DNA from: a virus
Taxonomy: Duplodnaviria > Caudoviricetes
Strand: one strand, 5' to 3'
IMG/VR virus record: IMGVR_UViG_3300035497_000258
Span: 46,347 to 110,346 of that record
DNA: 64,000 nt
The notes below the pieces were generated by a model, which saw only the letters and a list, made by a program, of their open reading frames with translations, had not been told where the DNA came from and did no database searches. Position 1 is the first letter of the stretch, and every line of letters starts with the position of its first letter. The position numbers were made by a program, and so were the translations under genes. Positions 4,894 through 59,339 of the stretch are shown here, piece after piece.

Positions 4894-4914
4894 TTCTCCT
4901 GTTTCTCCTATCTA

Positions 4915-5886: not shown

Positions 5887-5893
5887 ATCATAA

Positions 5894-6698: not shown

Positions 6699-6712
6699 TT
6701 TTTGGCACCTCC

Positions 6713-7264: not shown

Positions 7265-7284
7265 TTTTTATCTCCTTTTACTCA

Positions 7285-7320
7285 GCGGTTAGGAGGGGAT
7301 TAACCCCTCCTACCTTTTTA
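7285..7320. terminator. Hairpin after the major capsid gene
   Basis: TAGGAGGGG...CCCCTCCTA inverted repeat. Confidence 0.55.
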
Positions 7321-7323
7321 TAA

Positions 7324-8355: not shown

Positions 8356-8372
8356 TATCTATCTCTCCTTTC

Positions 8373-9023: not shown

Positions 9024-9043
9024 TATTACATTTCCTCCTTATT

Positions 9044-10354: not shown

Positions 10355-10373
10355 CGTCAATCCCTCCTTTCAA

Positions 10374-11960: not shown

Positions 11961-11972
11961 TATCTCACCTCC

Positions 11973-12333
11973 TTAATATCCAGCTTTTTTGAATATATAA
12001 TCGTAGTTTACTCGTTCTTCTTCCCAATAAGGAATTTCAATTAGTTTTATATTATGTTCAGCGCAATAAAGGCGTTTCTTTTCATCATTATACTTTTGTT
12101 GATATAAACCTTTAGTGCCGCCAAATTTACTAACTGCTTGATAATGTTGTTTACCTTGATATTCAATTAGAAAATCAATACGTCCATCATCATCGAAAAT
12201 GGCGAAGTCAAAGCTATCGAAGAGGATTACCATTAGTACTCAATAAATCAGGAAATTCATATTCTTCTTGAAAGTTAATTTCATTAGCTTCTAAAATACG
12301 ATAGATTCTAATTTCACCTCTGCTAGCCCTCAA
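11973..12333 (-). CDS. PD-(D/E)XK-type endonuclease-like protein with an internal +1 frame break near 12210
   Basis: MRASRGEIRIYRILEANEINFQEEYEFPDL..NPLR in frame 0, then FDFAIFDDDGRIDFLIEYQGKQHY in the +1 frame. Confidence 0.6.
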
Positions 12334-13236
12334 TTACACCACCTCCTCATAAAAACACCACTTTAATTTTTCTCCAGTTTCTGGGTGAATACCAGCTGTT
12401 TCTTTTTTACCTAAGCAACAAGCTTTAATGCTTTTTCCAGTATCGAATAGACTAGACCATTTAGCAGCAGAAAGCATAGAATTAAAGATCTAATTAGTAT
12501 TTATACAAATAACCTTTATACTACGTTTATCTTTATACTATCTTGTGTCTATATTTTCTACATCGTTAATATAAATCCAATGTAACGGTATCCCAGATTC
12601 AGGATGTTTGCCAGAGCTTTTTCGCTCACCCCTGCAGCATTGCCCTATTCCAGAAACACTTTTAAGACCGCACCAATTAGCGGCCTCTTTTATTGTTGTA
12701 AAAATTTTTCCAGTCTCTAAATTTTTAACAATTTTACTATTTGGATTTTTATCTCCTTGACATTCTTTAATGCGTTTCTCTCTTTTAATAGGATCATTCC
12801 AGAAATTTTTTACTCCTCGCTATAAATTTTCTTCAGCTTTTTGAGCGAATTCTTTATTAGACCAAGATTTCTTTCTAGCCTCAGAGAAGCTTTTACTCAT
12901 TTTCGCTTTATATTCTGGATTTTTCCACATCTATTCCATATAATTATTTCCACCAGGAGTTAAATTATATCCTTTATCAGAGTTAAAACTATCATAATAA
13001 GCAATCCAATAAACTTCTCGTTCGTTGGCTTCTTGAAAAGTTAAATTATCTTCAATAATTTCATGCGAAAAATTTTCCCATCCATACTTCTAAATTGCTT
13101 TCCAAAATAAAGTGCATCCTTTATAATAAATACCATTACAGCTAAATCGCTATTTAATATTTTGTGTCTAGCCTATATAGATTTTCCCGTTAGTTAAATT
13201 AGTATGTTTATATATACAATATTTCTTTTCTTCCAT
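12334..13236 (-). CDS. Free-standing GIY-YIG homing endonuclease with NUMOD-like C-terminal repeats (300 aa, TAG-recoded)
   Basis: YCIYKHTNLTNGKIYIG*T...AI*KYGWENFSHEII...ANEREVYWI...GYNLTPGG; two C-terminal AGKHPESG/AGIHPETG repeats. Confidence 0.85.
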
Positions 13237-13323
13237 AAGGATTTATACCTCTATTTTCTTATAAAGTTCTCTTTATTAGTTATAAAAAATCAACTAATTG
13301 TATTAAATAAATCTGTCCTAGTC

Positions 13324-15973: not shown

Positions 15974-17232
15974 TAAATCTCCCCCTTTATAGCTAATTCG
16001 TGAAGATACTCCATATCTTCTTCGCTCATTTTCTCTTCTTCTTCATAGAACTCTTGGAAATCTTCTGTGCGGAGCTCATGGTAAGAATCCTTGTAATCAA
16101 ACAAATGTTCTTCCGCCATAACTTCATCATTCTCGTCATAACCTAATTCGCCAGCCTCTTTAATAGTTTGCCGCTCATCTTCAAGCTGTCGAATTGCATT
16201 TTCGATAAGATTACCAAGTCCCATTTCCTCAGTAACAAGAGTATGAACGTAGTGTTGTGTATCTTCTATAACTCTATCTACTTTATCTTTAGGTTTATCG
16301 ACATAGTATTTAGGAATGTAGCCATCTTGTTCACAAAGAACAACTAACTCGCCTACTGCATCAATAAACTCGCCCTATTCCGCTTTATTCTAGACGGCGG
16401 TAAATTTCCCGCTTTTCATAAGGGTGTCATAGGCCTTGAGCATTTTCTGAAAGTTATCTATGTCTCCCGCATCTAAAAGCTAATTGGCTTTAAGGGAAGT
16501 CTTGCAGAGTTTAATTAAAGTATCTTTATGGCCGGCAGTTTGAATATCATAAGAAGCCATCATATCATTGTAGAATTGCTCTAATTGAACCCACTCGCTG
16601 GGCCGATAGCTAGTTCCCCATTTAATGCGGAGATAAGTTGTATCTTCTTCTGTTAGCCCAAGATTTTTTTCTTCTTCCAGTATTTCCTAAACAGAAGGAA
16701 AGAGTGATGATGTGCCGGAGTCGGAGCTATTAGGATCCTCTTTTCCGGAGATCGGCAGTTGGGCACTTTCTTCTTCAACTAAACTTATCCACCCAGGTGC
16801 CTTTATTAGCTCCTTGTCCTATGCGAGTTCAACCTAGATCTCATCCTCCGATAAGCCGGAATCCCGCATTGTCTATATGCGCTTTTCCTCTATTTCAGCT
16901 TCTATCCGCTCAGTATCGGCCCATCGCGCGGTCTTCCACTGCGACAGCCGCATTTTAGAGAGATATTTACCTAAGATTGTTTTTCCTGTTAGTGCCTCTA
17001 AGTCATTTTCATATTTCTTTAGAAGGCTATCCCATTGTGTTTTGATGTATGGGACATCTATTTCTTTGAGTAGAGGCTTAAAAGTCTCTGGGTCAAAGTT
17101 ATCCACAAGCATCGTCGCGCATTTTTTACACTCGTTAAGCTTGCCATTGGGATATTTTTCTAAATTATAAGAAGAGTAAAACTCAGAAGCGTTCATTGTT
17201 TGTCTGCAAGTTTTACAATAACATTGTTCCAT
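15973..17232 (-). CDS. Zn-finger-containing protein upstream of terL, candidate terminase small subunit (TAG-recoded)
   Basis: MEQCYCKTC...ECKKC; track ORFs 16873-17253 and 15973-16224 are in one frame separated only by TAGs. Confidence 0.65.
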
Positions 17233-17234
17233 TG

Positions 17235-18269
17235 TCAGCCCTTCTTTCTGCAACTTCTACAGGACTTGCAAATACTGTAGAAAGTATCTTTACTTGCATT
17301 ATTTCTTGAAAAAAAGATACTGTGGCTTGGCTTTTTTTGCCCACAACGAGAACATTTCTTAAAAGGAAGGTCTCTGTAGTGATAATACCAGATTAGATAC
17401 TCCTCTATAGCGGCGTGCGCAATTAGTTTTGGGATTTTAGTAACCCAGAGATTTGAGATGTACTCGATAGAGTATGTGGAATCGAATATTTCGCTAAGTC
17501 CTTGCTATATTTCAAGATTAGAAGCGCCATCGATCTTGCGCTCGCACACATATTTTAGTTTAGGCTCGTCCGCAAGAGCTTTGTCGCAAACTCGGTCGAA
17601 AGATTCTAAGAGATACCACATATCACCCTCGAATTTACCGTAGGCGTCTTGCCGCAACTTGGAGTAATTTTGGAGGATTGCACTTACTACTTCGGTACGT
17701 AGTAGAGATACTCCTTCTGCTGATATTTCGTAATTGGAGGGTACGGTGACGTGTTCATCAAGAGAAGGAAAAATGGACTGCGGGCGCGTCAGCTTTTTGG
17801 GGATTACAGGCTAGGTATAAGATTGCTTTATGACATACTAGTCTTTCCGCATATCTATTATTGCTTTTTTCATTATAAAAGCATCTCTGCCGCTAGCTTT
17901 CTTGATAGCGCTCTACCATTGATCTAGCGACTCCCGCAGTTGAGAGAGAAAGGGAATTGTATCTAAATCGGTTTGTGTAATTGAAATTTTAGGGGTTAGA
18001 GGTGTTTGAATATCAGAAACTAGATTGTAAATTCCATCTTCGCCATTTTCGAGAGAGGAAACTAGGCCTTCGAAGGAAGTTTCTCGTTTATTGATGGTAG
18101 CAAGACGGTTTTCAGTAAGTAGTTTACGTTGTTTCTTTTCAAAGCCGAGTATAAGATAGTCAGCAAGCTTTTCAAGATATTGAGAAGGAGGATTAGGAGT
18201 TTCTTGAAGGATTTGGTCTACTAAAGCTTTGCGCTAGTCTAAATCGGTTATTGTATAATCTAATTTTAT
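17235..18269 (-). CDS. Hypothetical protein with a C-terminal CxxC...CxxC Zn ribbon (~344 aa, TAG-recoded, apparent ATA start)
   Basis: GAGGTG RBS 7 nt before ATA AAA TTA GAT TAT; frame ends KCSRCGQKK...FYSICKSCR...TGA. Confidence 0.65.
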
Positions 18270-45994: not shown

Positions 45995-46339
45995 TTGGCT
46001 GAAACAACAATAATTAAATTTAAGCGTGGTTCTGCAAATACATGGATTCGATTAAATCCAATACTTGAATCTGGCGAGCCTGGATATGAAAAAGATACAG
46101 GCAAACTTAAAATTGGAGATGGCACTACTGCTTGGAATGATTTAAAATACTTCGAGGGAGAAGCATCCATTTCTATTGATAATAAAAGTTTGACTTTATA
46201 CGGCGATGCCATAGAATTATACGGTTTTAGTGCAGCGACCGCCGGTCAAATCCCTTCTAAAGGGAGCGACGGAAATCTTGAATGGGTTGACAAGAATATT
46301 CCTTTAACTGAAAAGGAAATTCTTTCAATATTAAATTAA
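45995..46339 (+). CDS. Tail-fibre adaptor-like protein (Mtd-N/hyaluronidase N-terminal type domain)
   Basis: KFKRGSANTW...NPILESGEPGYEKDTGKLKIGDGTTAWNDLKY. Confidence 0.75.
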   Translation: MAETTIIKFKRGSANTWIRLNPILESGEPGYEKDTGKLKIGDGTTAWNDLKYFEGEASISIDNKSLTLYGDAIELYGFSAATAGQIPSKGSDGNLEWVDKNIPLTEKEILSILN

Positions 46340-46355
46340 AAGGGGAGGTTATCAA

Positions 46356-47108
46356 ATGGTAAAAGTTCTTGACCAAGCTGGTTTAGTTACATTATGGGCG
46401 CAAATTAAGGGCTATAATGCAGACGCTATTTCTGAAGCTTTAACTAACTATAAAACTAGCTCTGAATTAGTTGAAATCTTAAGTGATTATGTCACAGAAG
46501 ATAAACTTCAAGAAGCTATTGCAGAAGTTACTACAGACGTAACTAGAGTATTTACTTATAAGGGTAGTATTGATAATTATTCTGAATTACCTGCTGATGC
46601 AGCTATTGGAGACGTTTATAATGTCATAAATGCAGACGCAGATAATGGTATTAATCCTGGTGATAATGTTGTTTGGACTGGAGATTCTTGGGATAAACTT
46701 GCTGGCTCTATTGATCTGAGTAATTATGCTACTAAGTCTGATCTTGATAATAAAACTACTTAGAGCATTAAAGACGTGAATGGCGAGTCGCTTGTTTGGA
46801 ATGAAACTTCTGGCGGTGGCGCTAAATTTATTCATACTGATGGTACTGAATCTTTCGTTGGAGTAAATGATGGTGGCGCCAATGGCATGGTTGCTCAAAT
46901 TTATGCTGATAAAGAGGTTAATGGCGACTGGATCGGTTCACGTTTAAACGTGTATCAAAAAGGTATGTTCTATCACAATGCAGAAGATAAAGCTTCTGGT
47001 AATTATGTTGCTGATGATCCTGAGCATGAAGTAGCAGTTAAGAAAGATATCGAGGCTGTTATTCCTGAAGCCTTAACCGAGGATGAAATTAAAACTATTT
47101 GCGTATAA
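46356..47108 (+). CDS. Tail fibre-like protein (250 aa, 1 TAG)
   Basis: YKGSIDNYSELP...GDVYNV...WDKLAGSIDLSNY; DNKTT*SIKDVNGE joins two track ORFs. Confidence 0.7.
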
Positions 47109-47126
47109 GGGAAGGAGGACAATTAA

Positions 47127-47489
47127 GTGTCTAAATTCCTAGACCAATCAGGCGTAAGTATACTATGGACTCTTATGAAAGATAAGGGTTCAAAAAGAGA
47201 TAATTATTTTAATTATGAAGATACCTATGTCCCTGATAATGGACAAATTTGTTTTGTAGATACCGCTAAAGATGGTCTACAAATAAAAATCGGTGATGGT
47301 ATTACTCCATGGATCTAGCTTTCATACCTCTAGGCATCTGAGGATTCCGCGGGTATTATGAAACTTTATCAAAGTTTAGGAACTAATACAGATGGAGCGA
47401 TAAGTTAGAAAGTTATTACCGATGAATTAGAGAATAAATTTAGCGTAGAAGTGAATAACTCTCAAGAGCTTATTCGTTTTTATAAATAA
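47127..47489 (+). CDS. Tail fibre-associated protein (120 aa, 3 TAG)
   Basis: KIGDGITPWI*LSYL*ASEDSAGIMKLYQSLGTNTDGAIS*KVITDEL. Confidence 0.7.
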
Positions 47490-47511
47490 AAAATAAGGAG
47501 ATTTTTAATTT

Positions 47512-48711
47512 ATGTCAATTTTTGAATATACTGCTGGCTCTGTGCTAAGCCAAATTGAGCTAGGCGGCGTTACTTATTTATTAAAAGACGCTGATGCACG
47601 TAGTATTTTAGACACTCTGGGTAATGCTTCTTTAAAGGATGTTTCTACTAGCGGTGTTGCTGAAGGCGAGAATGGTCTTGTCACAGGTGCTCAAGTTCAG
47701 TCTGCTATTGCTGGTTTAACAGGTGTTCTGCATTTTAAAGGCAAGCTTGATGAGTTGCCCACTGATGTTTCTACATATGAGAGTGGCGATGTCATCATTG
47801 TTGGTACTAAAGAGTATCTTTTTTATGATGGTGCATTTACTGAACTTGGTGATGAAGGCGCATATGTCCCTAAGACCCGTAAGATCGCTAATATCGCTCT
47901 CGACGCTGACATCAGCGTAGCTTCTTTACAATCTGCGCTTGGCTTAAAGGCTCTTGCTTATAAGGATTCAGCTTCTGGCACTGTTGAAGTTACTACTGGT
48001 ATCAATGGCGCTTCTTATACTCCTGCTGGTACTGTTTCCACCACTCTTTCTACTGAATCTAGTACTGTGAGTTCTTCTGGTAAATTTACTCCTGAAGGTT
48101 CGGTATCTGGTAGCGTGACTCCTTCTGGTAAAGTGACACTCTCTGTTGATAATACTAATGGCGTTACTCTTGGTGGCACTGTATCAGCTCCTACAATTAC
48201 TGTGACTCCTTCTACTACTACCGTAAAGCATATTTCTTCTGTGGGTACTCTTCCTTCTTATACAGCGGCTTCTTATACCGCTCCTAGCGTATCTGAATCT
48301 ACTAGTAATTTTGCTACTTCTGGCGTGACTGCTACTGTGAGTGGTGAAACTCTGACTTTAGGTACTGCTTCTACTAGTGCCGCTGTGACTTCTACTGGCT
48401 TTAAAGCTGGTTCTTTCACTGATGGTACATTTTCTGCTGGTACTCTACCTTCTCTTGATAGCGGCATTACTGTGGTTACTGGTATTGAATCAGCTACTGC
48501 TACCGCTCCTACCTTTACCGGTAATAAATATTCTGCCACTTTCGCAGGGAATACTAATACAATTTCTGCTACATTTAGTGGTTCTGAAGGTGACGTCAGT
48601 GTAAGTGGTAGTTATACTAAAGCTACTGATGTTTCTAGTACATTTAAGGGTACAGCAGATACTATTACTCCCACTCTGACAAAGAGTACAAAGACTGTTA
48701 CTGTTTCCTAA
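47512..48711 (+). CDS. Ser/Thr/Gly-rich fibre-like structural protein
   Basis: 399 aa; repeated TPxGTVS / PTFTG motifs. Confidence 0.7.
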   Translation: MSIFEYTAGSVLSQIELGGVTYLLKDADARSILDTLGNASLKDVSTSGVAEGENGLVTGAQVQSAIAGLTGVLHFKGKLDELPTDVSTYESGDVIIVGTKEYLFYDGAFTELGDEGAYVPKTRKIANIALDADISVASLQSALGLKALAYKDSASGTVEVTTGINGASYTPAGTVSTTLSTESSTVSSSGKFTPEGSVSGSVTPSGKVTLSVDNTNGVTLGGTVSAPTITVTPSTTTVKHISSVGTLPSYTAASYTAPSVSESTSNFATSGVTATVSGETLTLGTASTSAAVTSTGFKAGSFTDGTFSAGTLPSLDSGITVVTGIESATATAPTFTGNKYSATFAGNTNTISATFSGSEGDVSVSGSYTKATDVSSTFKGTADTITPTLTKSTKTVTVS

Positions 48712-48733
48712 TTAAAAGGACGGTGTGAAGTAA

Positions 48734-49918
48734 GTGGCAGATTTAGCTAATATTAAAGTAGGCAGCACCACTTACACTCTAAAAGATACTGCTGCGAGGG
48801 ATCGTCTTGACATTATTGAGACGACCCTCGCATCAGGACTTATCTTTAAGGGTACAGTCTCAAGTGCTGCCGATATTACAGGATTAACGGATTATAAAGT
48901 TGGTTGGACTTACAAAGCCTCTGCCTCTTTTAGTATAACAAATATAGGAAGTATAGAATCAGGAGACATGATTATTTGTGTTTCTGCGTATAGTTCTTCC
49001 TATAAAGCAACAGACTGGACTGTGGTTTAGAATAATGTTGATACATTTACTGGCGCAAGTGCGAGCACGGCAGGTACAAGGGGTTTAGTGCCCTAGCCTT
49101 CCGCAGGTAGCCAATCTAAGTTCTTACGTGGAGACGCGACTTGGGCTTCTATAGACTCAGTACCTAAATTAACCACTGCCCGCACAATAACTGTGGACGG
49201 CGATGAGTCGGGCTCTGCTTCTTTTGATGGTTCTTCTAATGTTACTATCAATCTAACTGATAATCGCTTTGTAATGGGCACTCAGACAGCTTCTACCGCA
49301 GATTGGACTGGTAATTTACATGGTGTCAAAGCATTATATGATGGACTTTGTATTAATTATTGGCTTCCTTATGCTTCTGTGAGTAGTACTAATGTTACTT
49401 TAAATTTAACTCTCGACGATGGTACTACTACAGGCGCTATTGATTGTTATAGATGGGCAACTTCAAGATTAACTACGCATTATGGGGCCAATTATCTTGT
49501 TACATTAACCTATCGTTCTGGAGTAAATATTAATGGAACTACTTATACTGGTTGGTGGGCTACTGGTGATGCAAATTCTACTTACTCTAATGCTTCACTG
49601 GGATAGGGATATGTAACGTGCTCAACAGCGGCAGCTACTACTGCCAAAACAGCTTCTTTAAGTAGCTATTCTTTAACTACTGGAGGCATCGTTGCTGTTA
49701 AATTTACTTATGATGTACCTGCAAATGCTACTTTAAGCATTAATTCTAAAACCGCAAAAAGTATTTACTATAACGGAGCAGCTATTAAAGCTGGTGTAAT
49801 AAACGCTGGAGATATAGCTTACTTTATCTATAGTTCTCAATATCATTTATTGGGGAAAAATACCACTTTGGATGACGTAGCTTCTGCTTTAGATAGTGTT
49901 ACATGGTTTGATTTTTGA
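48734..49918 (+). CDS. Tail fibre protein (394 aa, 3 TAG)
   Basis: DWTVV*NNVD...AGTRGLVP*PSAGSQSKFLRGDATW...SNASLG*GYVTCSTAAATTAKT. Confidence 0.75.
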
Positions 49919-50136
49919 TATTAGGGGACTCGTTTATGAGTCCCCTTTTTTCTTTAGATTTAAGGATCTTTTTTACAAAAATCTTTGAAATTTCAAAAAA
50001 AATATCATATAATATTATTGTAGTTAAGGGAACGAAGCTACAACAAGGTTTACTTTTATGGGTGTTTGAAAAAGGGTTGGTTAACGAGGAACCCAAATCC
50101 TCCATCGAGCTGTGGAACGTAGCCTGGGCTCTTTAT

Positions 50137-50453: not shown

Positions 50454-50528
50454 GGAGGTGTAGTGTAATGGTAGCACAGAGGGCTCTAACCCCTCGGGTC
50501 TTGGTTCGATTCTGAAGCGCCTCTGCCA
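50454..50528 (+). tRNA. Amber-decoding tRNA (anticodon CTA), probably Gln-charged
   Basis: GGAGGTG/CGCCTCT acceptor; GAGGG-CT-CTA-AC-CCCTC; G discriminator and CCA. Confidence 0.85.
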
Positions 50529-50574
50529 GACTAAAAGGGAGGGAAACCTCCCTTTATTTTTTATAGGAGAAATT

Positions 50575-52230
50575 ATGTATAAAGAACATTACCCGTTTTT
50601 TAGTAGCGTGTGTTTGAACCTCACTGACGCGTGTAACCTAGAATGCAAGTATTGCGCACCAGCCGGCACTAAGATCTTAATGGCTGATGGTAGCACGAAA
50701 AATATTGAAGATATTGAAATCGCTGATAGAGTTATGGGGTTTGAAGAAGAAGCTCCCCATAGAGTAAAAACAACTAAAGTTCTTAATATTTTTGTAAGAG
50801 AAGCTAGAACTTTATTTAAAATTGTTACGAAGGATAAACATAAAATTTATCTTACAGGAAATCATCCTATCTTAACTGGAGTAAATAAATGGACCCAGGT
50901 AAAAGATTTAAAGCCTGGGATCGATGTGGCTTACATATTTGGAGATATAGGGCTATATAGTTCTATAATTGAATCTGTCGAAGAAATTTTTGAAACTACG
51001 CAGGTTTATAATTTTGAGACTAGTGAACATACTTATTTTGCAGATGGTTTTGCTGTTCATAACTGCTTTGTTAAGCAATGTAACCACTATATGACTTACG
51101 AAATTGCAGAACAAAGCGTTGATTTTTTAATGAATAATGTTAAACAAAAGGAAGAATTAACTGGAATTAAGCAAGATCCTTCTATTACTTACTTTGGCGG
51201 TGAACCTACTATAATGTGGGATAGTATTATTGTGCCGCTGACTAAGCATATTAGAGAGAAATATGGAGATACTATTACTCTTACAATGACCACTAATGGG
51301 ACGCTGCTAGACAAGGAAAGAATTGATTTTATGCGGAAGTATGATATCTATCCCCATCTTTCTTTCGATGGTCCTAAAGAAGTTCAAGATAAAAATCGTC
51401 CAATGCGGAATGGGCAAAGTAGTTATGAGGCGGCGGCTTCCAATATTTCCTATTTATTACAGAATTTTCCAAACACCACTATGAGAGCAACCATTGACCA
51501 AGCTACAGTTGATGGCACTTTTAACTCGTATGTTTTCGCTATGGAGCACGGTTTCCGCAATTTCTTTACAATGCCTAATGGTAGAGAAACTTGGTCAGAA
51601 GAAAATATTCAAAAACTTGATGAAGAAGTAGAGAAGATTTTTGCGTTGATGTATCTACAGTTTTCTGAGGGTCATAAACCTTTTACTTCTTTCTCTCGTA
51701 TTGATAAAACTTATGAAGATATATTAAATAGAGATTTACAGTTCTATCATAATAGATTTAATAATGTTTCTATTCATCGCGAGCCTTTTAGATGCGGCCT
51801 TGGTACTACTTCTGCTTCTATTTCTTATGATGGTAGAATTTATGCTTGTCAAGAGCAAGATTCTTATGGAAATAGTTTCTTCTTTATCGGTGATATTTGG
51901 AATGGCGTAGATAGAAAAAAGCATGAAGCTTTGTTAGATGAATATACAAAAGAAGCAATAAATGAGTGTGAGAAGCCTGAACTCTGCAAAACTTGCCCCT
52001 TACGGCAGGTGTGCCAGACCAATGGTTGTCCTTCTTCTAACTATGATACTTATGAAGATTTCTTTATCAATCCAGAAGTAGCTTGTAGGTGGAACCAAAT
52101 TTTGTTTAAACACGCTGTTAATATGATGAAATGTTTAGTAGAAGAAAATAACTTAGTTTTTAAAGATTATTTAGATAATGAATGTCATTATAAAAATTAT
52201 TGTAGAAAGGAGAAGAAAAATGAGTTGTGA
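50575..52230 (+). CDS. Radical SAM/SPASM-domain enzyme containing a mini-intein
   Basis: CNLECKY[intein]C; FGGEP, TTNGTLL, SFDGPKEVQDKNR; SPASM CGLG...GRIYAC...CKTC...C...GC. Confidence 0.9.
   Translation: MYKEHYPFFSSVCLNLTDACNLECKYCAPAGTKILMADGSTKNIEDIEIADRVMGFEEEAPHRVKTTKVLNIFVREARTLFKIVTKDKHKIYLTGNHPILTGVNKWTQVKDLKPGIDVAYIFGDIGLYSSIIESVEEIFETTQVYNFETSEHTYFADGFAVHNCFVKQCNHYMTYEIAEQSVDFLMNNVKQKEELTGIKQDPSITYFGGEPTIMWDSIIVPLTKHIREKYGDTITLTMTTNGTLLDKERIDFMRKYDIYPHLSFDGPKEVQDKNRPMRNGQSSYEAAASNISYLLQNFPNTTMRATIDQATVDGTFNSYVFAMEHGFRNFFTMPNGRETWSEENIQKLDEEVEKIFALMYLQFSEGHKPFTSFSRIDKTYEDILNRDLQFYHNRFNNVSIHREPFRCGLGTTSASISYDGRIYACQEQDSYGNSFFFIGDIWNGVDRKKHEALLDEYTKEAINECEKPELCKTCPLRQVCQTNGCPSSNYDTYEDFFINPEVACRWNQILFKHAVNMMKCLVEENNLVFKDYLDNECHYKNYCRKEKKNEL
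50653..51063 (+). mobile_element. Mini-intein (137 aa, no endonuclease domain)
   Basis: Block A CAPAGTKILMADG, block B LTGNHPI, blocks F/G VYNFET...YFADGFAVHN, followed by +1 Cys. Confidence 0.92.
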
Positions 52231-52810
52231 AACTTGTGTTAGCTGTCAAGACTGCGATGGCTGCAATACTTGTAATGATAGTTGTAATAATTGTGACAAT
52301 GGTAATTGTACAACCTGTGATGATGCACAAACGTATTGTAAAGTTCAAGAAGTTTATAGTATCGATTGCTCTAATAAGTTTGCATGGAATGGCGGGGTAA
52401 CTGCTGGAAGTGAATTAATTAAACTTACCGATTGGAATAGGCTTCCTGCATATGTTAAAGCTTTAAGATCTAAAGGTATTGGGGGCAAGAGTACCAGCGG
52501 AATTACAACACAAACTGATAAAGAAGTTAAAGCATCTTGGTTTAATAATTATGCTGCATTAGTGGGAAGCTCCAAAAGAGCAACAGCAGGAAAAACTTAT
52601 ATTTATGGCTCTTATTTTGAAGATTTAGCCAATAAAGCTAATGATTTAACTTATGAAAAAAATCAGTGTACTGTTTGCAATACTGGTTGCAATACTTGTG
52701 ATAGCTGTAAAGGCTGTAACTTATGTAAATCAGGTAATACAACAAGCTCCAAGTGTAAAAGCGGAAATACCTGTACTACAGATTGTAGCCAAACATCTAG
52801 CAGTTCGTGA
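52220..52810 (+). CDS. Cys-rich CxxC-repeat protein, candidate radical SAM substrate
   Basis: AGGAG RBS; start overlaps the rSAM gene end; CETCVSCQDCDGCNTC at the N-terminus and CTVCNTGCNTCDSCKGCNLC at the C-terminus. Confidence 0.75.
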   Translation: MSCETCVSCQDCDGCNTCNDSCNNCDNGNCTTCDDAQTYCKVQEVYSIDCSNKFAWNGGVTAGSELIKLTDWNRLPAYVKALRSKGIGGKSTSGITTQTDKEVKASWFNNYAALVGSSKRATAGKTYIYGSYFEDLANKANDLTYEKNQCTVCNTGCNTCDSCKGCNLCKSGNTTSSKCKSGNTCTTDCSQTSSSS

Positions 52811-52816
52811 AAAGTA

Positions 52817-53347
52817 ATGAAAGAATTAATTGAACAAATAGAGAAATATCTCTTAAAACAAGAGAACACAATAGCTAAAGCAGTCCTTCGATATTTTAAA
52901 ACAGAAGGAAAAGGTGAAGAATTGTTCGACGAATACTACGATTCTTTTGAAAAAGTATTAGCTATGTGTATAAAATATATTACTACAGAATACGAGATTG
53001 AAGTCCCCGGCGACATAGCTGTATTTTCAGTAACCTATGATGATATGGAAACCTTTGAATCTCGAGTGCGGGAGTGGCTGAACTGCGGCGACCGCAATCT
53101 AGCTCTATATCATTGTCTTTTGATTCTTGATAATGAGTGTTATACTATTGTGAATAGAATTGCTTATAACTTATTTAAGGATATTCCTGATATGTATGGC
53201 GAAATTCTTCATGCCGAGGATTGTTGCGGTTATTGCGCCGATACGTTTGACGGACCTCCAGTCCCTGTCTCTGAAATAAAAGAAATTCCTCCTTATCATC
53301 CTTCATGTCGATGCGTTTATACTTATTTTAGAAAAGAAATTACTTGA
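52817..53347 (+). CDS. Protein with a MuF/SPP1-gp7-like minor head C-terminal motif
   Basis: CCGYC...IPPYHPSCRC. Confidence 0.55.
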   Translation: MKELIEQIEKYLLKQENTIAKAVLRYFKTEGKGEELFDEYYDSFEKVLAMCIKYITTEYEIEVPGDIAVFSVTYDDMETFESRVREWLNCGDRNLALYHCLLILDNECYTIVNRIAYNLFKDIPDMYGEILHAEDCCGYCADTFDGPPVPVSEIKEIPPYHPSCRCVYTYFRKEIT

Positions 53348-53438
53348 AATTTTATTATAAAAATTGTATAATGTATATAGAAAGTTAAGAGAGATACTTT
53401 TCTTGAAAAAAGAAAAGTCAGCAAAAAGGAGATTTTAT

Positions 53439-54911
53439 ATGTTAAATGAATTAAAGATTGAAGCATCTAAGACTTATACTGAAAATGGCGGCGTGAGTTA
53501 TTCTACTACTGCAGATCGAGTGTTCGATCTCTTTAGCCTTGGTGGCGCATATAGAGAGCGTAGTAAAGAAGATACGATTGCACTTTTTGCTTCTGCTTAT
53601 CGAGAGAATCCTACTTTTGCTTTGAAGTGCTTGTTTTACTTGCGTGATGCGCGCGGAGGCCAGGGCGAAAGAGCCTTTTTCCGAGTTTGTTTGAAGTGGT
53701 TGGCTAATTATGACCCTGATGCAGTTCTGCGGAATCTTGGATATATTCCTGAGTTTGGTAGATGGGACGATTTATTCGAGCTGTTTGATACTCCGGTTGA
53801 AGCTGAGGTTATGCAATTTATCGCAGAACAGCTTGCGATGGATATTAAGAACGCTCTTAAGGAAGATTCTATTAGCCTTCTTGCTAAATGGCTTCCTAGT
53901 GAAAATACTTCTAGTCAAGAAACTCGAAGAAAGGCTAAGAAGATTCGAGAATATCTTCATATGACTCCCAAGCTGTATCGTAAGACTCTGTCAGAATTGC
54001 GGAATTATTCTAACGTTCTTGAGCGTCTTATGAGTGATAAGAGATGGGATGAGATTGATTTCTCGGCTGTTCCTTCTAAGGCTGGTTTGAAGTATTCTAA
54101 AGCTTTTTTGAAGAATAAGGAAACTTCTGAGCGATATCAGGAATTTATTCAGTCTAAGAATACTAAAGTCCATGCTGGAACTCTGTATCCTGCTGATGTA
54201 GTGCATAAGGTTATGGGTAAGAGCTATTATGATATGCACTATACTGACTTAGAAGATAGAGCAATATATAACAAGTATTGGGGAAATCTTACCGACTATT
54301 TTAAGGGCGCAAAATTCAATGGTATTGCAGTGGTAGATACTTCTGGTAGTATGTACGGACGCCCGATCGAAGTTGCAATCTCGTTAGGTTTGTATTGCGC
54401 TGGAAAGTGTAATCCTGGGAGTCCTTTCTATAACCATTATATTTCTTTTTCTAGCCGACCTGAACTAGTAGAGATTACTGGACAAGATTTCTGTAGTCAG
54501 GTAATTAATATCTATGATAATATGCTCTGCGATAACACTAATATTGAAGCTGTATTTAATCTACTGCTCAATACCGCCTTAAAGCATCAGCTCCCGCAGT
54601 CTGAACTTCCTGAGAATATTATCATTATCTCTGATATGGAATTTGATAGTATGACGAACTACAGAAGCTTAGAGGGCCTTTACTCTGGTATGGAGACTAT
54701 TAGAAACAAATGGGAAGAATATGGATACAAGATGCCTAATCTTGTATATTGGAATGTCAATGCTAGACATAACCTTATTCCTGAGGCTCCTAAGAACGGT
54801 GTTTCTTTTGTAAGTGGTTACTCCCCGGTCATTTTGGATTCTATTCTTACCGGCAAGACTGGTAAAGAACTGATGTTTGAAACTTTAAAGAAGTATGACA
54901 TGATTCGATAA
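53439..54911 (+). CDS. DUF2828-family protein (TROVE/Ro60-like plus vWA domain)
   Basis: TENGGVSYSTT...DLF, RDARGGQGER, EFGRWDDL, AKWLPSE, MIDAS VDTSGSM, IISDMEFD, YWNV; AGGAG RBS before ATG 53439. Confidence 0.8.
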   Translation: MLNELKIEASKTYTENGGVSYSTTADRVFDLFSLGGAYRERSKEDTIALFASAYRENPTFALKCLFYLRDARGGQGERAFFRVCLKWLANYDPDAVLRNLGYIPEFGRWDDLFELFDTPVEAEVMQFIAEQLAMDIKNALKEDSISLLAKWLPSENTSSQETRRKAKKIREYLHMTPKLYRKTLSELRNYSNVLERLMSDKRWDEIDFSAVPSKAGLKYSKAFLKNKETSERYQEFIQSKNTKVHAGTLYPADVVHKVMGKSYYDMHYTDLEDRAIYNKYWGNLTDYFKGAKFNGIAVVDTSGSMYGRPIEVAISLGLYCAGKCNPGSPFYNHYISFSSRPELVEITGQDFCSQVINIYDNMLCDNTNIEAVFNLLLNTALKHQLPQSELPENIIIISDMEFDSMTNYRSLEGLYSGMETIRNKWEEYGYKMPNLVYWNVNARHNLIPEAPKNGVSFVSGYSPVILDSILTGKTGKELMFETLKKYDMIR

Positions 54912-54926
54912 GGAGGATATTTAAGT

Positions 54927-55226
54927 ATGGACGCTAAGATTTATCTCGATTACGCACACAAGATTATTGAGTATACCGATTATCTTGACAAGATTAGTGA
55001 AGTTCTTTATCCTGCCGATCTTTATTACTCTCCATTCAATGATATCATCGACCCCGCTTGCGAAATGCTTGCGCGGCTGGTAGATCTTGAGGGGATTGAA
55101 CTCGGAGATTGGACGTGCGCTTTTATGAACGTTGTTTTTAATAAGGACGAGCTGAGTGATACTAAGCTGCTTAGTCTAACTGACCCAGAGGAAGCTAAGG
55201 TTTTGATTGATAGATATTGTCATTAA
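54927..55226 (+). CDS. Hypothetical protein
   Basis: GGAGG RBS; terminator follows. Confidence 0.65.
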   Translation: MDAKIYLDYAHKIIEYTDYLDKISEVLYPADLYYSPFNDIIDPACEMLARLVDLEGIELGDWTCAFMNVVFNKDELSDTKLLSLTDPEEAKVLIDRYCH

Positions 55227-55296
55227 GGGAGCTACGGCTCCCTTTTATTTTTTTATAATAAAAATGTTATAATAAAATAAAAAGGAAATAATAAAT

Positions 55297-55776
55297 ATGT
55301 TAGGAATAATTTTAGTAATTTTAATTTCAGCAGGCATAATTGGTATTATTCTTTTCGCTAATGCTTGCTCAAACGATAAAGTAAAATTTATAGAAAAAAG
55401 AAAAATAAAAAAACGTTATTATGAATGTTTATATGATGGACCAACTATCACATATGAAATATTTAAAGATTTGTATGAAGTAAATCCAAATAGATGGGAA
55501 CTTCCTCGTGATTTTCAGTGGAGATATAGAGAAGATAACTTCGAGAGTCATTATGTTAGAATGAGCTTTGAAGATTTTTTAGCTACTAGAAGATTAGTTA
55601 AACATAAAAAAGCACTTGAAACTCAAGCTAAGAATAATGAGGCAATGATTGCTATTTATAAATCTGTACAACGTGATATCGAGAGGCTGCATGAACAAGC
55701 TAAAGAAGAAATTCAAACTAGTGGTGATAAGATCGTTGAGATTGCAGAAAGGATTGAGAATAGATGCAAGGAGTAA
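55297..55776 (+). CDS. Membrane-anchored hypothetical protein
   Basis: N-terminal TM segment; C-terminal coiled coil. Confidence 0.65.
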   Translation: MLGIILVILISAGIIGIILFANACSNDKVKFIEKRKIKKRYYECLYDGPTITYEIFKDLYEVNPNRWELPRDFQWRYREDNFESHYVRMSFEDFLATRRLVKHKKALETQAKNNEAMIAIYKSVQRDIERLHEQAKEEIQTSGDKIVEIAERIENRCKE

Positions 55777-56099
55777 CTATTCTAAATGAATTTAGTATTA
55801 TCGCTGAACGTAATTGGACTGTAGCAACATTCATAGGATTTATAATTATTATACTTATGATATGTGCGGTTGGAACTATAGCAGTAACTTCCCTTGGAGG
55901 TGTAGGATACGTATTACTTTTATGCTCTGCAATTTTTGGTTTTTTTGGTATTCAAGCTATTGGGTACTTAACTAGTGAGCCAGTATATGAGACTCATTAT
56001 CAAGTGATGATAGATGATTCAGTTTCTATGATTGATTTTTCAAATAGATATGAAGTATTAGAACAACAGGGTAAGATATTTATCGTGAAAGATAAGTGA
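55764..56099 (+). CDS. Membrane protein with two TM segments
   Basis: Two hydrophobic stretches. Confidence 0.6.
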   Translation: MQGVTILNEFSIIAERNWTVATFIGFIIIILMICAVGTIAVTSLGGVGYVLLLCSAIFGFFGIQAIGYLTSEPVYETHYQVMIDDSVSMIDFSNRYEVLEQQGKIFIVKDK

Positions 56100-56159
56100 T
56101 TTTATTTTATAGAAAAAATATAGTATTATATCTATAGAAAGTTAAAGGAGAAAGAAGAA

Positions 56160-56759
56160 ATGACTTGCATTGTTGGATTTACAGATAAAGAAACTAATCA
56201 GGTTTGGATAGGCGGAGATGCCTTAGGTAGTAATGGTTATACTAAAGACGTACAAGCTTTGCCAAAAGTATTTAGACATGATACATTTAAAAATGTCATT
56301 ATGGGAAGCACAGGGTCGTTTCGCCATATGGATTTGTTAAAGTATAGTGAAAAACTTTTTCCTGAAATTGATTGGTATAAAGGAAAAGATATTGACCATA
56401 AATATATGGTTAAAACTTTTATTCCTAATCTAATAACTTTATTTCAAGAAAATATTATTGATAAGCCTAGCGAAGAACGAGGTGGAAACTTCCTCCTTGG
56501 AGTAGAAGATAAGCTATTTGAAATTCAAAGTGATTATTCTGTTTTGCGATCGAATTCTGGATTTGCGGCGGTTGGTTGTGGTGAAAATGCAGCACTAGCA
56601 AGTCTAATTACTACGACAAAGCATTTTAAAGATAAGCTAACTCCAGTTGAACATATTACTTACGCTCTTGAAGCAGCAGAAGAGCTATGTGAGGGAGTAC
56701 AACGTCCTTTTTGTATTTTAAGCACGAATCAAGAAGTAGAACCAATTATTATTGTTTGA
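56160..56759 (+). CDS. HslV/proteasome-beta-like Ntn-hydrolase
   Basis: N-terminal (M)TCIVG nucleophile Thr, GGD, K, AVGCG motifs. Confidence 0.75.
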   Translation: MTCIVGFTDKETNQVWIGGDALGSNGYTKDVQALPKVFRHDTFKNVIMGSTGSFRHMDLLKYSEKLFPEIDWYKGKDIDHKYMVKTFIPNLITLFQENIIDKPSEERGGNFLLGVEDKLFEIQSDYSVLRSNSGFAAVGCGENAALASLITTTKHFKDKLTPVEHITYALEAAEELCEGVQRPFCILSTNQEVEPIIIV

Positions 56760-56775
56760 GAAAGGATTGATGGTT

Positions 56776-57549
56776 ATGAAGAATTTTCACTCTGATGAAT
56801 GGATTATGGCTCGCATGGAAGAAATTTATGCGCTGTGCGCGGACCGCTGCGTAAAAGAGAATAACATCGTAGGGCTGTTCTACTACGGCTCTGGCAACTA
56901 TGGGCTTGATACTGAGCAGTCCGATGTTGATACTGTTCTTCTTGTAACTCCTACTCTTGACCAGCTTATCAATGGTGAGATGGTTACTTATGAAACTACC
57001 ACCAATGATACGTGGCATATCGTGGTTAAGGACATTAGACTTTGGTATCAGAGTCTTACGAAGCCGAGTATCTCGATTCTTGAAACTTTGTTCACGGATT
57101 ATAAAATCGTGAATCCTAAGTATAAGGATGAATGGGACCTACTCACCGCCGCACGCGAAGATCTTGTAAGACTTCATCCTCTTGCTTTAGCCAACAATAT
57201 TCGAGGTATGGCCAAGAATGAGCATAAGAGAATCCGTGATGGAAGAGAAGATTATTCCAAGTGTCTCAGCCATCTGTTCCGACTTGAATATCTTCTGCTG
57301 AATTACATGGCTACTAAGAACTATGAGGCTTCTTTGAAGGAAATTCCTTGGACCCAGGTTAAAGAAGCAAAAGAAGGAAAATGGAATTTGGAAGAAGCTA
57401 AAGCTATGGCAGATATGATTATGCCTACCTTTACTCTTTTTAAAAGTTATTTTCCTGTGGAACCTAGCAACCAGAACTTGAGAAAAGATTATCGAGAAGT
57501 CGTAAACTATATGGTGCGGAAGTGCGTTAAGGAGGAAGCTAATGGATAA
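56776..57549 (+). CDS. Pol-beta-superfamily nucleotidyltransferase
   Basis: YGSGNYGLDTEQSDVDT motif; KDIR; LETLFT. Confidence 0.8.
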   Translation: MKNFHSDEWIMARMEEIYALCADRCVKENNIVGLFYYGSGNYGLDTEQSDVDTVLLVTPTLDQLINGEMVTYETTTNDTWHIVVKDIRLWYQSLTKPSISILETLFTDYKIVNPKYKDEWDLLTAAREDLVRLHPLALANNIRGMAKNEHKRIRDGREDYSKCLSHLFRLEYLLLNYMATKNYEASLKEIPWTQVKEAKEGKWNLEEAKAMADMIMPTFTLFKSYFPVEPSNQNLRKDYREVVNYMVRKCVKEEANG

Positions 57550-58045
57550 TTATATCTACGTCAATGGGCGGAAGCGTTATCTGAGCAATGAAGAAGCAAA
57601 TCATCTGGAGAGTATTTACTTCAAAAATGAGTTTGATAGACAGTCAGACGATCTATTTTACTTCATTGATATTGATGGTGAAGTGGCCGAAGAAGGAGAT
57701 TGCAACTCTACATTTGAGGATAGTCTATATGCAGTAGGAAATTACTGTACTAATGAAGCTATGATGGTTCAGCAAAGCTATCGAGAAATTCTGCGGAGGC
57801 TGCTGTGGCGATACACTATGCAGTATGAAGGAGATAAGATTGAGCTGACGAGAGATGAAGCTGTTTTTATCATTTGTTTTTCTGATAATGAATTTAGCGT
57901 TAAATGTCTCGCGGCAGGAGAGACTGAACAAGTTCCTTTTCTTTCTATTGTTTTTATTGATAGAGTTACTGCTCTTGGAGCAATAAGAGAAGTTGTGATG
58001 CCTTTTATTAACCAGCATCCCGATTTTGATTGGAGGGTAATGTAA
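57542..58045 (+). CDS. Hypothetical protein
   Basis: GGAGG RBS; overlaps the upstream gene. Confidence 0.65.
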   Translation: MDNYIYVNGRKRYLSNEEANHLESIYFKNEFDRQSDDLFYFIDIDGEVAEEGDCNSTFEDSLYAVGNYCTNEAMMVQQSYREILRRLLWRYTMQYEGDKIELTRDEAVFIICFSDNEFSVKCLAAGETEQVPFLSIVFIDRVTALGAIREVVMPFINQHPDFDWRVM

Positions 58046-58046
58046 T

Positions 58047-59339
58047 ATGTATTGCGCATACGTGACTACTTTAAAGAATGTGCGGAAGGCCGAGAATAGT
58101 GACCGTTTGTATCTCGCTGAATGTTACGGCGAGGGCGTTATCGTAGGTCCTGATTCTGTTGATGGTGATAAGGTACTTTATCTTCCGCAGGATGGACAGA
58201 TTGAGCGATGGTTTGGAGACGCCTTCAAGCTTTTCCGCAAGAATATGGATGGTAGTATCCAAGGTGGATATATCGAGAATAATGGTCATATTAGAGCAAT
58301 TAAGCTGAGAGGAAACCGCTCGGAAGGTATTGTTATTCCTATCTCTAAAATTTATAGTGTATTTGGCTATCAGAATTGGAATGATGGACAAGAAGTAACC
58401 TCTATCTTTGTGGATGGGAAAGAAAAGCGATTCTGTAAAAAGTATATTCCTAAGCAAACTGATGTTTATCATGGGGCTAAGAAAACTTCTTATAAGGGCC
58501 GCAAAGCTGAAGGTATCATTTATCCTGAGTTCTCTATGCACTCTGACACTCAACAGTTAGCTTATAATATGGATGCTTTTAAGCCTGGTGATAAGATTAA
58601 TATTACTTTGAAGATGCACGGCACTAGCCAGCGTTCTATGATGACTTATGGTGAGCTTCCTAATAATTGGTTCCGCAGATTATTTCATATGAAGAAAAAG
58701 ACTAAGCCTGCTTATGTGCTTGGTACTAGACGTACTGTTATTCATGAAAATTCTACTGGGTACTATGGAACTGATACTTTTAGATTTCCTCACCATGAAG
58801 CATTGGCGCCTTTTATGCAGGACTCACTTGAGGTATACTATGAAGTAGTTGGATATTATGGGCCTCAAGAAACGCAAACTATTATGCCTATTTGTGATAA
58901 TGCAAAAATCAATGATAAAAATTTCGTAAAGCAATATGGGGATACCACCACTTTTAACTATGGTTGTACTCCCGGTCACTCTGCGATGTGGATTTACCGT
59001 ATTACTTCTGATAATGGACGCAAGGAATGGACGCCTGATGAAATTACTGAATGGTGTAATATTCATAACTTTAATCGAGTTCCTGTAGTGGATGATTTCG
59101 AGTTTACTACCGCCGAAGACCTGCAGAACCGCATTAACGCATATTTTGAAGATTTGACTGATCCTATCGGCAAGACTCATATCAAAGAAGGCGTAGTAGT
59201 TAGAATTGTAAACCGACCTCGGTTTGAAGCTTATAAGTCTAAGACCGTAGAATTTAAGATTCTGGAAGGTTTAATTAAGGATAGCGCCAAAGCACCCGAT
59301 ATGGAAGAAGCACAAGAGTTGGAGGTGAATGATAATTAA
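58047..59339 (+). CDS. ATP-dependent RNA ligase (Rnl2/DRB0094-like) with an N-terminal tRNA-binding-type OB domain
   Basis: NSDRL...KLRGNRSEG N-terminal domain; motif I TLKMHGTS, YYEVVG, EGVVVR, YKSK. Confidence 0.8.
   Translation: MYCAYVTTLKNVRKAENSDRLYLAECYGEGVIVGPDSVDGDKVLYLPQDGQIERWFGDAFKLFRKNMDGSIQGGYIENNGHIRAIKLRGNRSEGIVIPISKIYSVFGYQNWNDGQEVTSIFVDGKEKRFCKKYIPKQTDVYHGAKKTSYKGRKAEGIIYPEFSMHSDTQQLAYNMDAFKPGDKINITLKMHGTSQRSMMTYGELPNNWFRRLFHMKKKTKPAYVLGTRRTVIHENSTGYYGTDTFRFPHHEALAPFMQDSLEVYYEVVGYYGPQETQTIMPICDNAKINDKNFVKQYGDTTTFNYGCTPGHSAMWIYRITSDNGRKEWTPDEITEWCNIHNFNRVPVVDDFEFTTAEDLQNRINAYFEDLTDPIGKTHIKEGVVVRIVNRPRFEAYKSKTVEFKILEGLIKDSAKAPDMEEAQELEVNDN

Follow-up and report, generated by a model that had tools for sequence, protein, structure and literature searches.

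To our knowledge, enzymatic thioether crosslinking of full-size proteins has been validated in very few cases, QhpC and, since 2026, CrpA, and we know of no viral case. QhpD installs intra-protein Cys-Asp/Glu thioethers in the protein subunit QhpC (PMC13692751), and CrpC of the archaeon Methanococcus voltae installs ranthionine links on the 28.8-kDa Cys-rich protein CrpA (Dieter et al. 2026, September; PMC13692751). The latter paper notes similar clusters across domains of life and lists RS-associated Cys-rich proteins in its Supplemental Data set 1, and the words 'phage' and 'viral' have 0 occurrences in it. Among peptide systems, PapB crosslinks Cys to Asp/Glu in C-X3-D motifs and tolerates C-Xn-D with n=0-6 (PMC9413430). 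The DNA analysed here, a 64-kb window (64,000 nucleotides) of IMG/VR virus record IMGVR_UViG_3300035497_000258, comes from a large tailed phage in which TAG is a sense codon. The window possesses a gene for a radical S-adenosylmethionine (SAM) enzyme of the SPASM type, which overlaps the start of a gene for a 196-residue protein with two dense Cys arrays. The pair is best explained as a translationally coupled phage module in which the enzyme would thioether-link the arrays of its neighbour, the product being a full-size and likely late, fibre or surface protein; this reading is given a probability of about 0.55.

The phage pair resembles CrpC/CrpA (PMC13692751) in that a SPASM radical SAM enzyme is encoded next to a large repeat protein rich in Cys, that the product would stay a protein, that acceptor-type residues follow Cys (C-X-X-Q/D in CrpA), and probably in binding that is partly domain-to-domain. 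It differs in that CrpC/CrpA is archaeal, CrpC has the recognition element (RRE) of maturases for peptides that ribosomes make and that are then post-translationally modified (RiPPs) and CrpA a leader-like N-terminus, and the repeat of CrpA is 17 residues long and confined to one C-terminal region, whereas the phage partner has two short-period arrays flanking a core. The gene context of the phage pair is one of fibre, lysis or late genes, and the window enzyme scores 40 bits against the CrpC-type model TIGR04463, whose cut-off is 525. PapB/PapA, the freyrasin ranthipeptide system, shares repeated C-X3-D-type motifs with the phage pair, and PapB is the top curated family for the phage enzyme; PapA, however, is a short leader-bearing peptide read via an RRE, whereas the presumed phage substrate is a 196-residue protein with a folded core and no leader, beside an enzyme without an RRE. 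CteB, the SCIFF maturase (TIGR03974), is the closest solved structure, yet it possesses ~90 additional N-terminal residues (the RRE); SCIFF is a ~45-residue peptide with six Cys, and the phage enzyme reaches 111-129 bits against a cut-off of 425. In QhpD/QhpC, as would be the case here, the target is a protein subunit and not a natural product, but that system involves three links, an enzyme subunit, an RRE and leader, and a periplasmic enzyme pathway, and the phage enzyme scores 107-120 bits against its model TIGR03906 (cut-off 453). The HXS antiphage system (HxsB/C radical SAM enzymes and a His-Xaa-Ser effector; PMC13128918) likewise combines a radical SAM maturase with a repeat protein, but it is bacterial, periplasmic and built on His-Xaa-Ser repeats, and the phage enzyme scores 79-93 bits against HxsB (cut-off 370).

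A radical SAM enzyme with a Cys-repeat target is already present in the family names TIGR04115 and Pfam PF27846 'tSAM_targ_Cxxx_rpt', although the phage repeat is mainly CxxC, versus CXXX in those families. No NCBIfam family matched the partner or five larger targets, and a Pfam scan of the partner and ten relatives found no repeat-target family; in one look-alike cluster of the partner, 53% of which is viral, PF27846 is assigned to 23% of members. A paper describing TIGR04115 or PF27846 was not found in the literature searched, in which a single irrelevant paper cites the names, and neither a phage-encoded enzyme like this one nor thioether-modified phage proteins were found there, most subscription journals lying outside that literature. 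Relative to the known systems, the new features are a viral setting, independence of leader and RRE, array-core-array substrates, and the link to virion-type proteins in relatives.

The window enzyme is a member of the radical SAM superfamily, possessing the CxxxCxxC motif and the core domain (Radical_SAM, PF04055, 54.3 bits, cut-off 29.5; Fer4_12, 27.7 bits, cut-off 22), and of the SPASM subfamily, possessing the seven-Cys pattern C270...G283-x4-C288...C334-x2-C337-x5-C343-x4-C348...C367, which is invariant in an alignment with 26 relatives of 43-64% identity. One spacing in this pattern is x4 and not x3, and the SPASM cysteines align to the SPASM region of CteB; C20, C24 and C27 of the radical SAM motif are nearly invariant in the same relatives. 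NCBIfam models were compared with 14 phage enzymes: the window precursor, an intein-less allele, and 12 more relatives from phages. For each of them the top match is the PapB family ranthipeptide maturase (NF047865), at 158-261 bits (172 for the window precursor, 189 for the intein-less allele), and the runners-up are nif11-type, SCIFF, CcpM and QhpD maturases. By profile, the closest solved structure is 5WGG/5WHY (E 4.4e-36), the second of which is identified as CteB in PMC13692751, and the alignment spans the radical SAM core, the bridging region, and the SPASM cysteines. Position 7 of the enzyme profile aligns to CteB residue 91, with the radical SAM motif beginning at residue 20, and in the SCIFF, CcpM, nif11 and QhpD models the match does not begin before positions 77-113. 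Therefore, the phage enzyme is without the ~90-residue N-terminal leader-binding domain, the RRE, that is characteristic of canonical RiPP maturases.

The enzyme gene is interrupted by a mini-intein without an endonuclease domain (CAPAGT...AVHN|C), and Hom_end_hint matches the precursor at 34.0 bits (cut-off 32.1). Its identity as an intein is established by the Hint fold and by its precise absence from an orthologue. This orthologue lies on G001, the nearest record found, a 136-kb virus contig in which 32% of sampled 31-mers are common with the window; it encodes 412 residues (locus L002, 8332-9570) and shows 98% identity on either side of a gap with clean edges, window residues 1-27 and 164-548 aligning to it and the junction reading ...CKY|CFVKQ.... 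The intein sits exactly on the third Cys of CxxxCxxC, so the ligand set of the cluster is restored only by splicing. Residues 15-114 are covered by the NCBIfam model 'intein-containing Rv2578c family radical SAM' (E 6.8e-17), which points to a recurring site of insertion. The N-terminal 73 nt of the intein resemble RecA/UvsX-like genes of the Proteus phages PM2 and Pm5461 (78% identity), and outside this stretch the region has no DNA-level match to GenBank phages.

A reading made from the letters and open reading frames (ORFs) of this DNA, referred to below as the sequence-only reading, had described an enzyme gene overlapping the start of a 196-residue protein, two Cys arrays around a Cys-free core, and a following protein with a PPxHPxCRC motif, and the ORFs are arranged exactly so. 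The partner ATG at 52220 lies 11 nt inside the enzyme gene, whose TGA ends at 52230, with AGGAG just upstream. The partner contains 22 Cys and 12 CxxC units, with zero Cys in residues 51-149; N/D/Q/E stands directly after Cys in 12 of 22 cases (8 of the first 10) and at +4 in 14 of 22. The arrays are not a product of chance, given that their Cys columns are invariant or more than 90% conserved in 43 family members and that the partner gene holds the only real Cys array in the window. Conserved positions in the core are F54, W72, A105, G130, Y132 and F133.

The window partner has no match in Pfam, NCBIfam or PHROGs, and a word-index search returned only three relatives (99%, 77% and 36% identity). 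When 1.84 billion representatives were searched exhaustively with a three-sequence profile, 143 proteins matched at E<=1e-3, as representatives at 50% clustering, of which 58 are at E<=1e-10 and most are 150-260 residues long. This family is unannotated and shares a common plan of an N-terminal array, a core of ~100 residues, and a C-terminal array. In 144 sequences of the family, the median number of Cys is 21, and a spacing of two residues is commonest (1246 units), followed by three (740). N/D/Q/E occupies the position next to Cys in 73% of 1276 CxxC units and in 73% of 740 CxxxC units, with S/T/G coming next, and thus the arrays present overlapping C-X3-[D/N/E/Q] motifs; aromatic residues are scarce between array Cys (W 0.3%, F 0.6%, Y 2.4%). 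AlphaFold2 (AF2), supplied with the family alignment, predicts residues 51-150 as a confident small helical domain and gives both arrays scores below 50 in pLDDT, the predicted local distance difference test. The best match of the core in BFVD is an uncharacterised Myoviridae protein at E 0.19, and the best Z in a wide VIA-align search, 5.4, is inside the tool's stated noise range. A complex prediction of enzyme and partner scored 0.00, which speaks neither for nor against.

The partner is distinct from a canonical RiPP precursor, given that it comprises 196 residues with arrays from residue 3 and is not short or leader-bearing, and no protease or transporter was seen in the conserved neighbourhood of the pair. 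The earlier statement that leader, transporter and peptidase are all missing nearby is correct for conserved genes, but 3.3 kb downstream there is an HslV-like peptidase, which only near relatives share. With no RRE, leader, protease or exporter, substrate recognition is therefore probably protein-to-protein, through the core or the arrays, and the product probably stays full-size.

Searches for related loci with the partner were weak: a single partner protein found no related locus in viral contigs, an alignment of eight partner sequences matched only G001-type contigs (IMG/VR), one 2-kb metagenome contig and one contig of a metagenome-assembled genome (MAG), tblastn against 50,697 GenBank phage records gave no match, though phage Phass-1 has a divergent unannotated member, and a class-wide genome search gave a match in one of 400 scored genomes. 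The neighbourhood was therefore approached from the enzyme side. Enzyme homologues at E<=1e-10 number 372, none of which has a functional name. An alignment of 26 enzyme sequences retrieved 92 IMG/VR relatives, of which the best 80 of 92 loci were kept, and the 42 loci scoring at least 200 bits against the clade profile constitute 33 clusters at 90% identity. An array was defined as at least 7 Cys per 30 residues on the same strand within 1.5 kb of the enzyme gene. By this definition an array adjoins the enzyme in 30 of 33 clusters, or 31 when locus L042, whose array was masked by an overlap filter, is added by eye, and the array is downstream in 29. Array density on the same strand is 0.39/kb near the enzyme versus 0.038/kb elsewhere. 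In six-frame hidden Markov model (HMM) scans, the core-type partner family directly follows the enzyme in 13 of 33 clusters, weakly so in L015/16 (E 2.3e-4), and partner start and enzyme stop overlap or are separated by at most 9 nt in all 14 lineages examined (first-start ORF calls). A further 34 loci with lower scores, taken without de-duplication, include 18 with an array within 1.5 kb. The sequence-only reading would have been refuted had the pair not recurred in other genomes; it does recur, with translational coupling, across many phages that diverge from one another. Kinship among related phages accounts for much of the adjacency, and the counts do not represent independent events.

Two of these loci, L012 (6157-8485) and L016 (3309-5127), possess a Cys-poor protein of 205-243 residues instead of an array neighbour; the next protein has a small number of Cys near its N-terminus, matches the core weakly, and resembles a cell-wall peptidase in its C-terminal part, and this neighbour may be a degenerated or re-purposed partner. 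The MAG contig (Erysipelotrichaceae, 3.5 kb) carries the C-terminus of a radical SAM/SPASM enzyme, a family member of 216 residues 5 nt on, and a DUF2828 gene, but no MuF-like gene. In phage Phass-1 (OQ749652, locus L088), of the code 15 clade, a family member of 174 residues with three in-frame TAG codons occupies 6147-6671, directly after the enzyme gene and before that of a topoisomerase II subunit. The deposit leaves this Cys-array member unannotated and annotates the enzyme as two hypothetical proteins, and 'radical SAM' has 0 occurrences in the Phass-1 paper (PMC10607447). A second, shorter radical SAM gene is present just upstream in this phage (3935-4966).

In relatives, arrays are also found on other carriers. 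A clade of 15 rows in a quick tree has 'array-only' neighbours, where the next gene encodes proteins of 238-788 residues with CxxxC arrays. Arrays in relatives are joined to PHROG 10993 'Hoc-like head decoration' regions (E 1e-84 to 6.5e-101), and in others to fn3 (46.4 bits) or tail-protein PHROGs. The Peptidase_S74 domain ('chaperone of endosialidase') is a mark of trimeric tail fibres and spikes. Locus L013, a divergent member of the small family (HMM E 4e-7), possesses this domain at its C-terminus (35.2 bits, cut-off 22), which indirectly backs a possible fibre-like role for the family; a Pfam scan of the window partner found no Peptidase_S74 (PF13884). The sequence-only reading had called the partner possibly virion-associated, and the presence of arrays on Hoc-like, FN3, tail-type and Peptidase_S74 proteins in relatives makes this plausible. 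Enzyme clade and partner type co-vary: a quick tree, in which relatives share labels through kinship, requires 5 label changes, whereas shuffled labels require 12 on average and none of 200 shuffles came down to 5. Alignment of the small family by hhalign to the domain after fn3 in L040 has a probability of 68% (E 4.9e-5, 64 columns), and to L024 26%, at most a hint that a core domain is common to them. Distant radical SAM/SPASM genes at L047 (734-6074), L053 (670-4488) and L061 (1448-3688) lie beside proteins of 747-1275 residues with 150-170 Cys in CxxxC/CxxC arrays, and the L047 enzyme opens with its own 140-residue CxxC array.

A late or virion-surface character is also suggested by codon use and gene order. 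The enzyme gene itself has 1-8 in-frame TAG codons in eight of 15 relatives examined, and the partners of L011 and Phass-1 have three each; suppressed stops mainly mark late genes, according to the introduction of the Phass-1 paper (PMC10607447). In the window, G001 and L010 the genes that precede the pair are tail-fibre-like, and the pair comes after fibre-like proteins of 887-941 residues in L027 and L012. Between the window and G001, protein identity is 98% for the enzyme, the MuF-like protein and the DUF2828 protein, with synonymous divergence (dS) of 0.24, 0.17 and 0.16, respectively, whereas it is 77% for the Cys-array partner (dS 1.01) and 58% for the upstream fibre gene at 47512-48711 (dS 0.85). 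Each Cys of the window partner aligns to a Cys in the G001 protein, and the ratio of nonsynonymous to synonymous divergence (dN/dS) of the partner is 0.16. The partner thus behaves as a cassette that is exchanged yet kept under constraint, as with the fibre gene upstream, a pattern like that of host-interaction genes. The matured partner is most likely a late, fibre-module or virion-surface component.

The proposed mechanism would begin with splicing of the mini-intein, which would complete the [4Fe-4S]-binding CxxxCxxC motif of the enzyme. The enzyme would then act on the product of the next gene, whose C-[N/D/Q/E]-[S/T/G] arrays are predicted to be unstructured around the folded helical core. 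SAM would be reductively cleaved and hydrogen abstracted from the side-chain or alpha carbon of an acceptor residue, and the Cys thiol would capture this carbon to give many thioether bridges, ranthionine or sactionine, of -2 Da each. By analogy, the chemistry is most likely that of the nearest characterised relatives. The arrays would thereby become redox-insensitive, protease-resistant 'stapled' segments, of possible use to proteins made in a reducing cytoplasm and released into the anaerobic gut, where disulfides are unreliable. The idea of a maturase acting on a full-size protein, and not on a leader peptide, thus stands as regards the coupled pair in divergent phages and the absence of an RRE, while the thioether step is proposed from enzyme affinities and array composition. 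It is possible, on a more tentative and doubtful extension, that many phages infecting anaerobic gut bacteria 'armour' virion-surface proteins (fibres, decoration proteins and small fibre-module proteins) with dense thioether ladders by means of leader-independent, RRE-less enzymes, and that the intein gates the enzyme in this phage; RiPP chemistry would then have a counterpart in viruses, at the level of proteins, that takes the place of disulfides in a reducing world.

Several observations weigh against thioether linking of a virion-type partner. No curated family cut-off is reached by the enzyme: PapB, at 172-189 bits, lies under 340, so PapB is the nearest family and the window enzyme is not a member; TIGR04115, the 'CXXX-repeat target family', gives 69 bits for the window enzyme and 84-133 for relatives where listed, against 350; TIGR04463 gives 40 bits against 525; and Pfam SPASM scores 17.8 bits, under its 21.5. 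The arrays receive no structure from AF2, and a Cys density of 33% with N/D/S/G/T spacers would also suit metallothionein-like or Fe-S binding. The core has no fold match in the PDB by Foldseek (0 of 38 at E<=0.001), and searches of Pfam, NCBIfam and PHROGs assigned the small partner to none of the virion protein families. The adjoining array is absent from two of 33 clusters, L012 and L015/16, and adjacency across related phages is partly inherited synteny. The window pair is without in-frame TAG, in a standard-code part of the genome, and in Phass-like phages the pair lies between lysis genes and topoisomerase II, outside the structural module, in the order holin, PhoH, amidase, second radical SAM gene, radical SAM gene, partner, topoisomerase II.

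The first alternative to be weighed is that the modified protein is non-structural, acting as a soluble effector at lysis or inside the cell, for example in superinfection exclusion, in counter-defence, or as a leaderless RiPP-like antimicrobial. This would be analogous to the radical SAM-matured repeat effectors of bacterial defence, among which an HxS-repeat effector stops phage DNA entry (PMC13128918). It agrees with the position of the window pair in a TAG-free part of the genome adjoining an RNA-repair-like block, with the holin/amidase and topoisomerase genes beside it in Phass-like phages, and with the high-dS swapped cassette, which is also expected of conflict genes. However, an effector is considered unlikely: ORFs and Pfam and PHROG scans give no sign of an exporter, a protease, an immunity gene or a signal peptide, the arrays of relatives stand on proteins of virion type, and in three lineages the pair comes after fibre genes. 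Slightly less weight is given to the partner being an unmodified metal-binder (Zn, Cu or Fe-S), perhaps an Fe-S or sulfur reservoir for the three clusters of the enzyme, with the true substrate elsewhere. Arrays that are one-third Cys with small polar spacers, and that are unstructured in AF2 as apo metal-binding segments are, would suit such a role; the authors of the CrpA study weigh metal binding for CrpA too (PMC13692751), and the proposal requires no other Cys array or alternative substrate signature. Cluster supply would nonetheless hardly account for the occurrence of arrays on unrelated carriers (Hoc-like, fn3, tail-type, Peptidase_S74, and proteins of 747-1275 residues), always beside the enzyme. 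The N/D/Q/E preference of 73% after Cys fits acceptor logic and not metal ligation, and the enzyme clade co-varies with array type, which makes a metal-binder rather unlikely.

It is improbable that the enzyme performs another SPASM reaction, such as formylglycine formation as in anSME, C-C cyclophane formation or epimerisation, on the arrays or elsewhere. Every curated thioether family is under cut-off, and anSME, cyclophane and other SPASM families are matched at lower scores, which leaves some room for this; yet the best matches are always Cys-thioether formers (PapB, SCIFF/CteB, CcpM, QhpD), 60-90 bits over anSME and cyclophane models. The scarcity of aromatic residues in the arrays argues against cyclophanes. 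CxPxR-type is the sulfatase motif, and its absence from the partner sequence argues against formylglycine. Very little credence is given to the proposal that the enzyme, the Cys-array protein and the MuF-like protein form one head-morphogenesis unit. The 11-nt overlap, the 6-nt gap and the lack of a terminator before 55225 would be compatible with such a unit, L011 has a MuF-like relative 4 kb upstream of its pair, and a language-model look-alike search returned Phage_Mu_F (PF04233) clusters for 21 of 30 matches, which serves as a lead only. Of the 33 clusters, however, the window/G001 lineage and L011 are the only ones in which phmmer detects a MuF-like protein close to the pair, 2 homologues were all that a word-index search returned, and the head module of the phage is 35 kb away on the opposite strand. 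Pfam finds no Phage_Mu_F in the window protein even at E<=10, the L011 relative (26% identical) scores 15.8 bits (E 0.025) versus a cut-off of 29.6, PHROG 4728 'head morphogenesis' matches residues 118-174 only (E 5.1e-4), the resemblance being confined to the C-terminal CxxC...PPxHPxCxC part, and AF2 gives a mean pLDDT of 56.6. The MuF-like gene, whose membership the title of the sequence-only reading implies, is therefore left out of the system, being rarely near the pair and its MuF label sub-threshold. A fused Cys-array/MuF protein arising through TAG recoding was ruled out, given that the partner stop is TGA; the enzyme and MuF-like genes also stop with TGA, and therefore recoding neither extends nor fuses any of the three.

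Thioether linking of the neighbour's arrays remains the preferred explanation, and if true it would constitute a new kind of post-translational modification in virion biology, would explain an unannotated family of 143 representatives, and would offer protein stapling a thioether synthase that by nature needs no leader. PapB-like enzymes are pervasively paired with Cys-array proteins in gut phages that are uncultured and often TAG-recoded, and the natural intein-less allele and its cognate substrate, both available as sequence, make a clean test case. The features of the locus are collected in Table 1.

Table 1. Features of the enzyme-partner locus and adjoining genes, in window positions
Feature	Position	Strand	Basis or remark
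Radical SAM/SPASM enzyme gene; 551-aa precursor, ~414 aa once spliced; PapB/CteB-like without RRE	50575..52230	+	ORF, Pfam, NCBIfam, profile-structure alignment
Mini-intein, 137 aa; Cys1 ... His-Asn then Cys+1, at third Cys of CxxxCxxC	50653..51063	+	Hint-domain matches; intein-less allele
Cys-array partner, 196 aa, presumed substrate	52220..52810	+	ORF, family profile
N-terminal Cys array, aa 3-50, 12 Cys	52226..52369	+	AF2 pLDDT <50 for aa 1-44
Cys-free helical core, aa 51-149	52370..52666	+	AF2 pLDDT 75-92
C-terminal Cys array, aa 150-189, 10 Cys	52667..52786	+	AF2 pLDDT <50
Weakly MuF-like protein, 176 aa; C-terminal CCGYC...PPYHPSCRC (PPYHPSCRC at aa 158-166)	52817..53347	+	6 nt after partner
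DUF2828/DUF7788 (TROVE/vWA-like) gene, PHROG 'RNA-binding protein'; recurrent neighbour of the pair in the phage group	53439..54911	+	
Suppressor tRNA, anticodon CTA, reads TAG	50454..50528	+	ARAGORN; directly upstream of the enzyme operon
Terminator-like hairpin 3' of the tRNA cluster, 20 nt 5' of the enzyme start	50534..50555	+	consensus scan
Tail-fibre-like genes immediately upstream	45995..49918	+	PHROG tail-fibre matches for 48734-49918

The suppressor is one of 11 tRNA genes in the window (ARAGORN). A consensus scan, in which terminator and promoter calls are pattern matches only, found further terminator-like hairpins at 49923-49946 (3' of the fibre genes) and 55225-55244 and promoter-like sites at 49985-50013 and 53344-53372, a pattern compatible with co-transcription of the enzyme, partner and MuF-like genes. 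The minus-strand genes at 866-17271 have long frames when TAG is read as Q, with up to 17 in-frame TAG, and include the portal (PHROG 2739, E 5e-85) and other head-module families, whereas no gene from 50575 to the window end needs TAG read-through. TAG use is thus sharply split between these head-module genes and the right-hand 13 kb, which has none. The hosts are probably anaerobic Bacillota, on the basis of the MAG contig, the taxa of the look-alike cluster, and the guess of the Phass-1 authors.

The fibre-like region at 45995-49918 appears as several short ORFs in table 11, and reading TAG as Q joins them into 46356-47108 and 48734-49918. Between the head-module genes lies a gene for a homing endonuclease of the GIY-YIG type (12334-13236, minus strand; PHROG 314, E 3.8e-36) with 7 in-frame TAG. 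An RNA-repair-like block is present downstream at 53439-59339, beginning with the DUF2828/DUF7788 gene and containing an HslV-like peptidase-fold protein (56160-56759), an RlaP-like nucleotidyltransferase (56752-57549) and an RNA ligase (58047-59339). DUF2828 also lies at most ~2.5 kb from the enzyme-partner pair in six other lineages.

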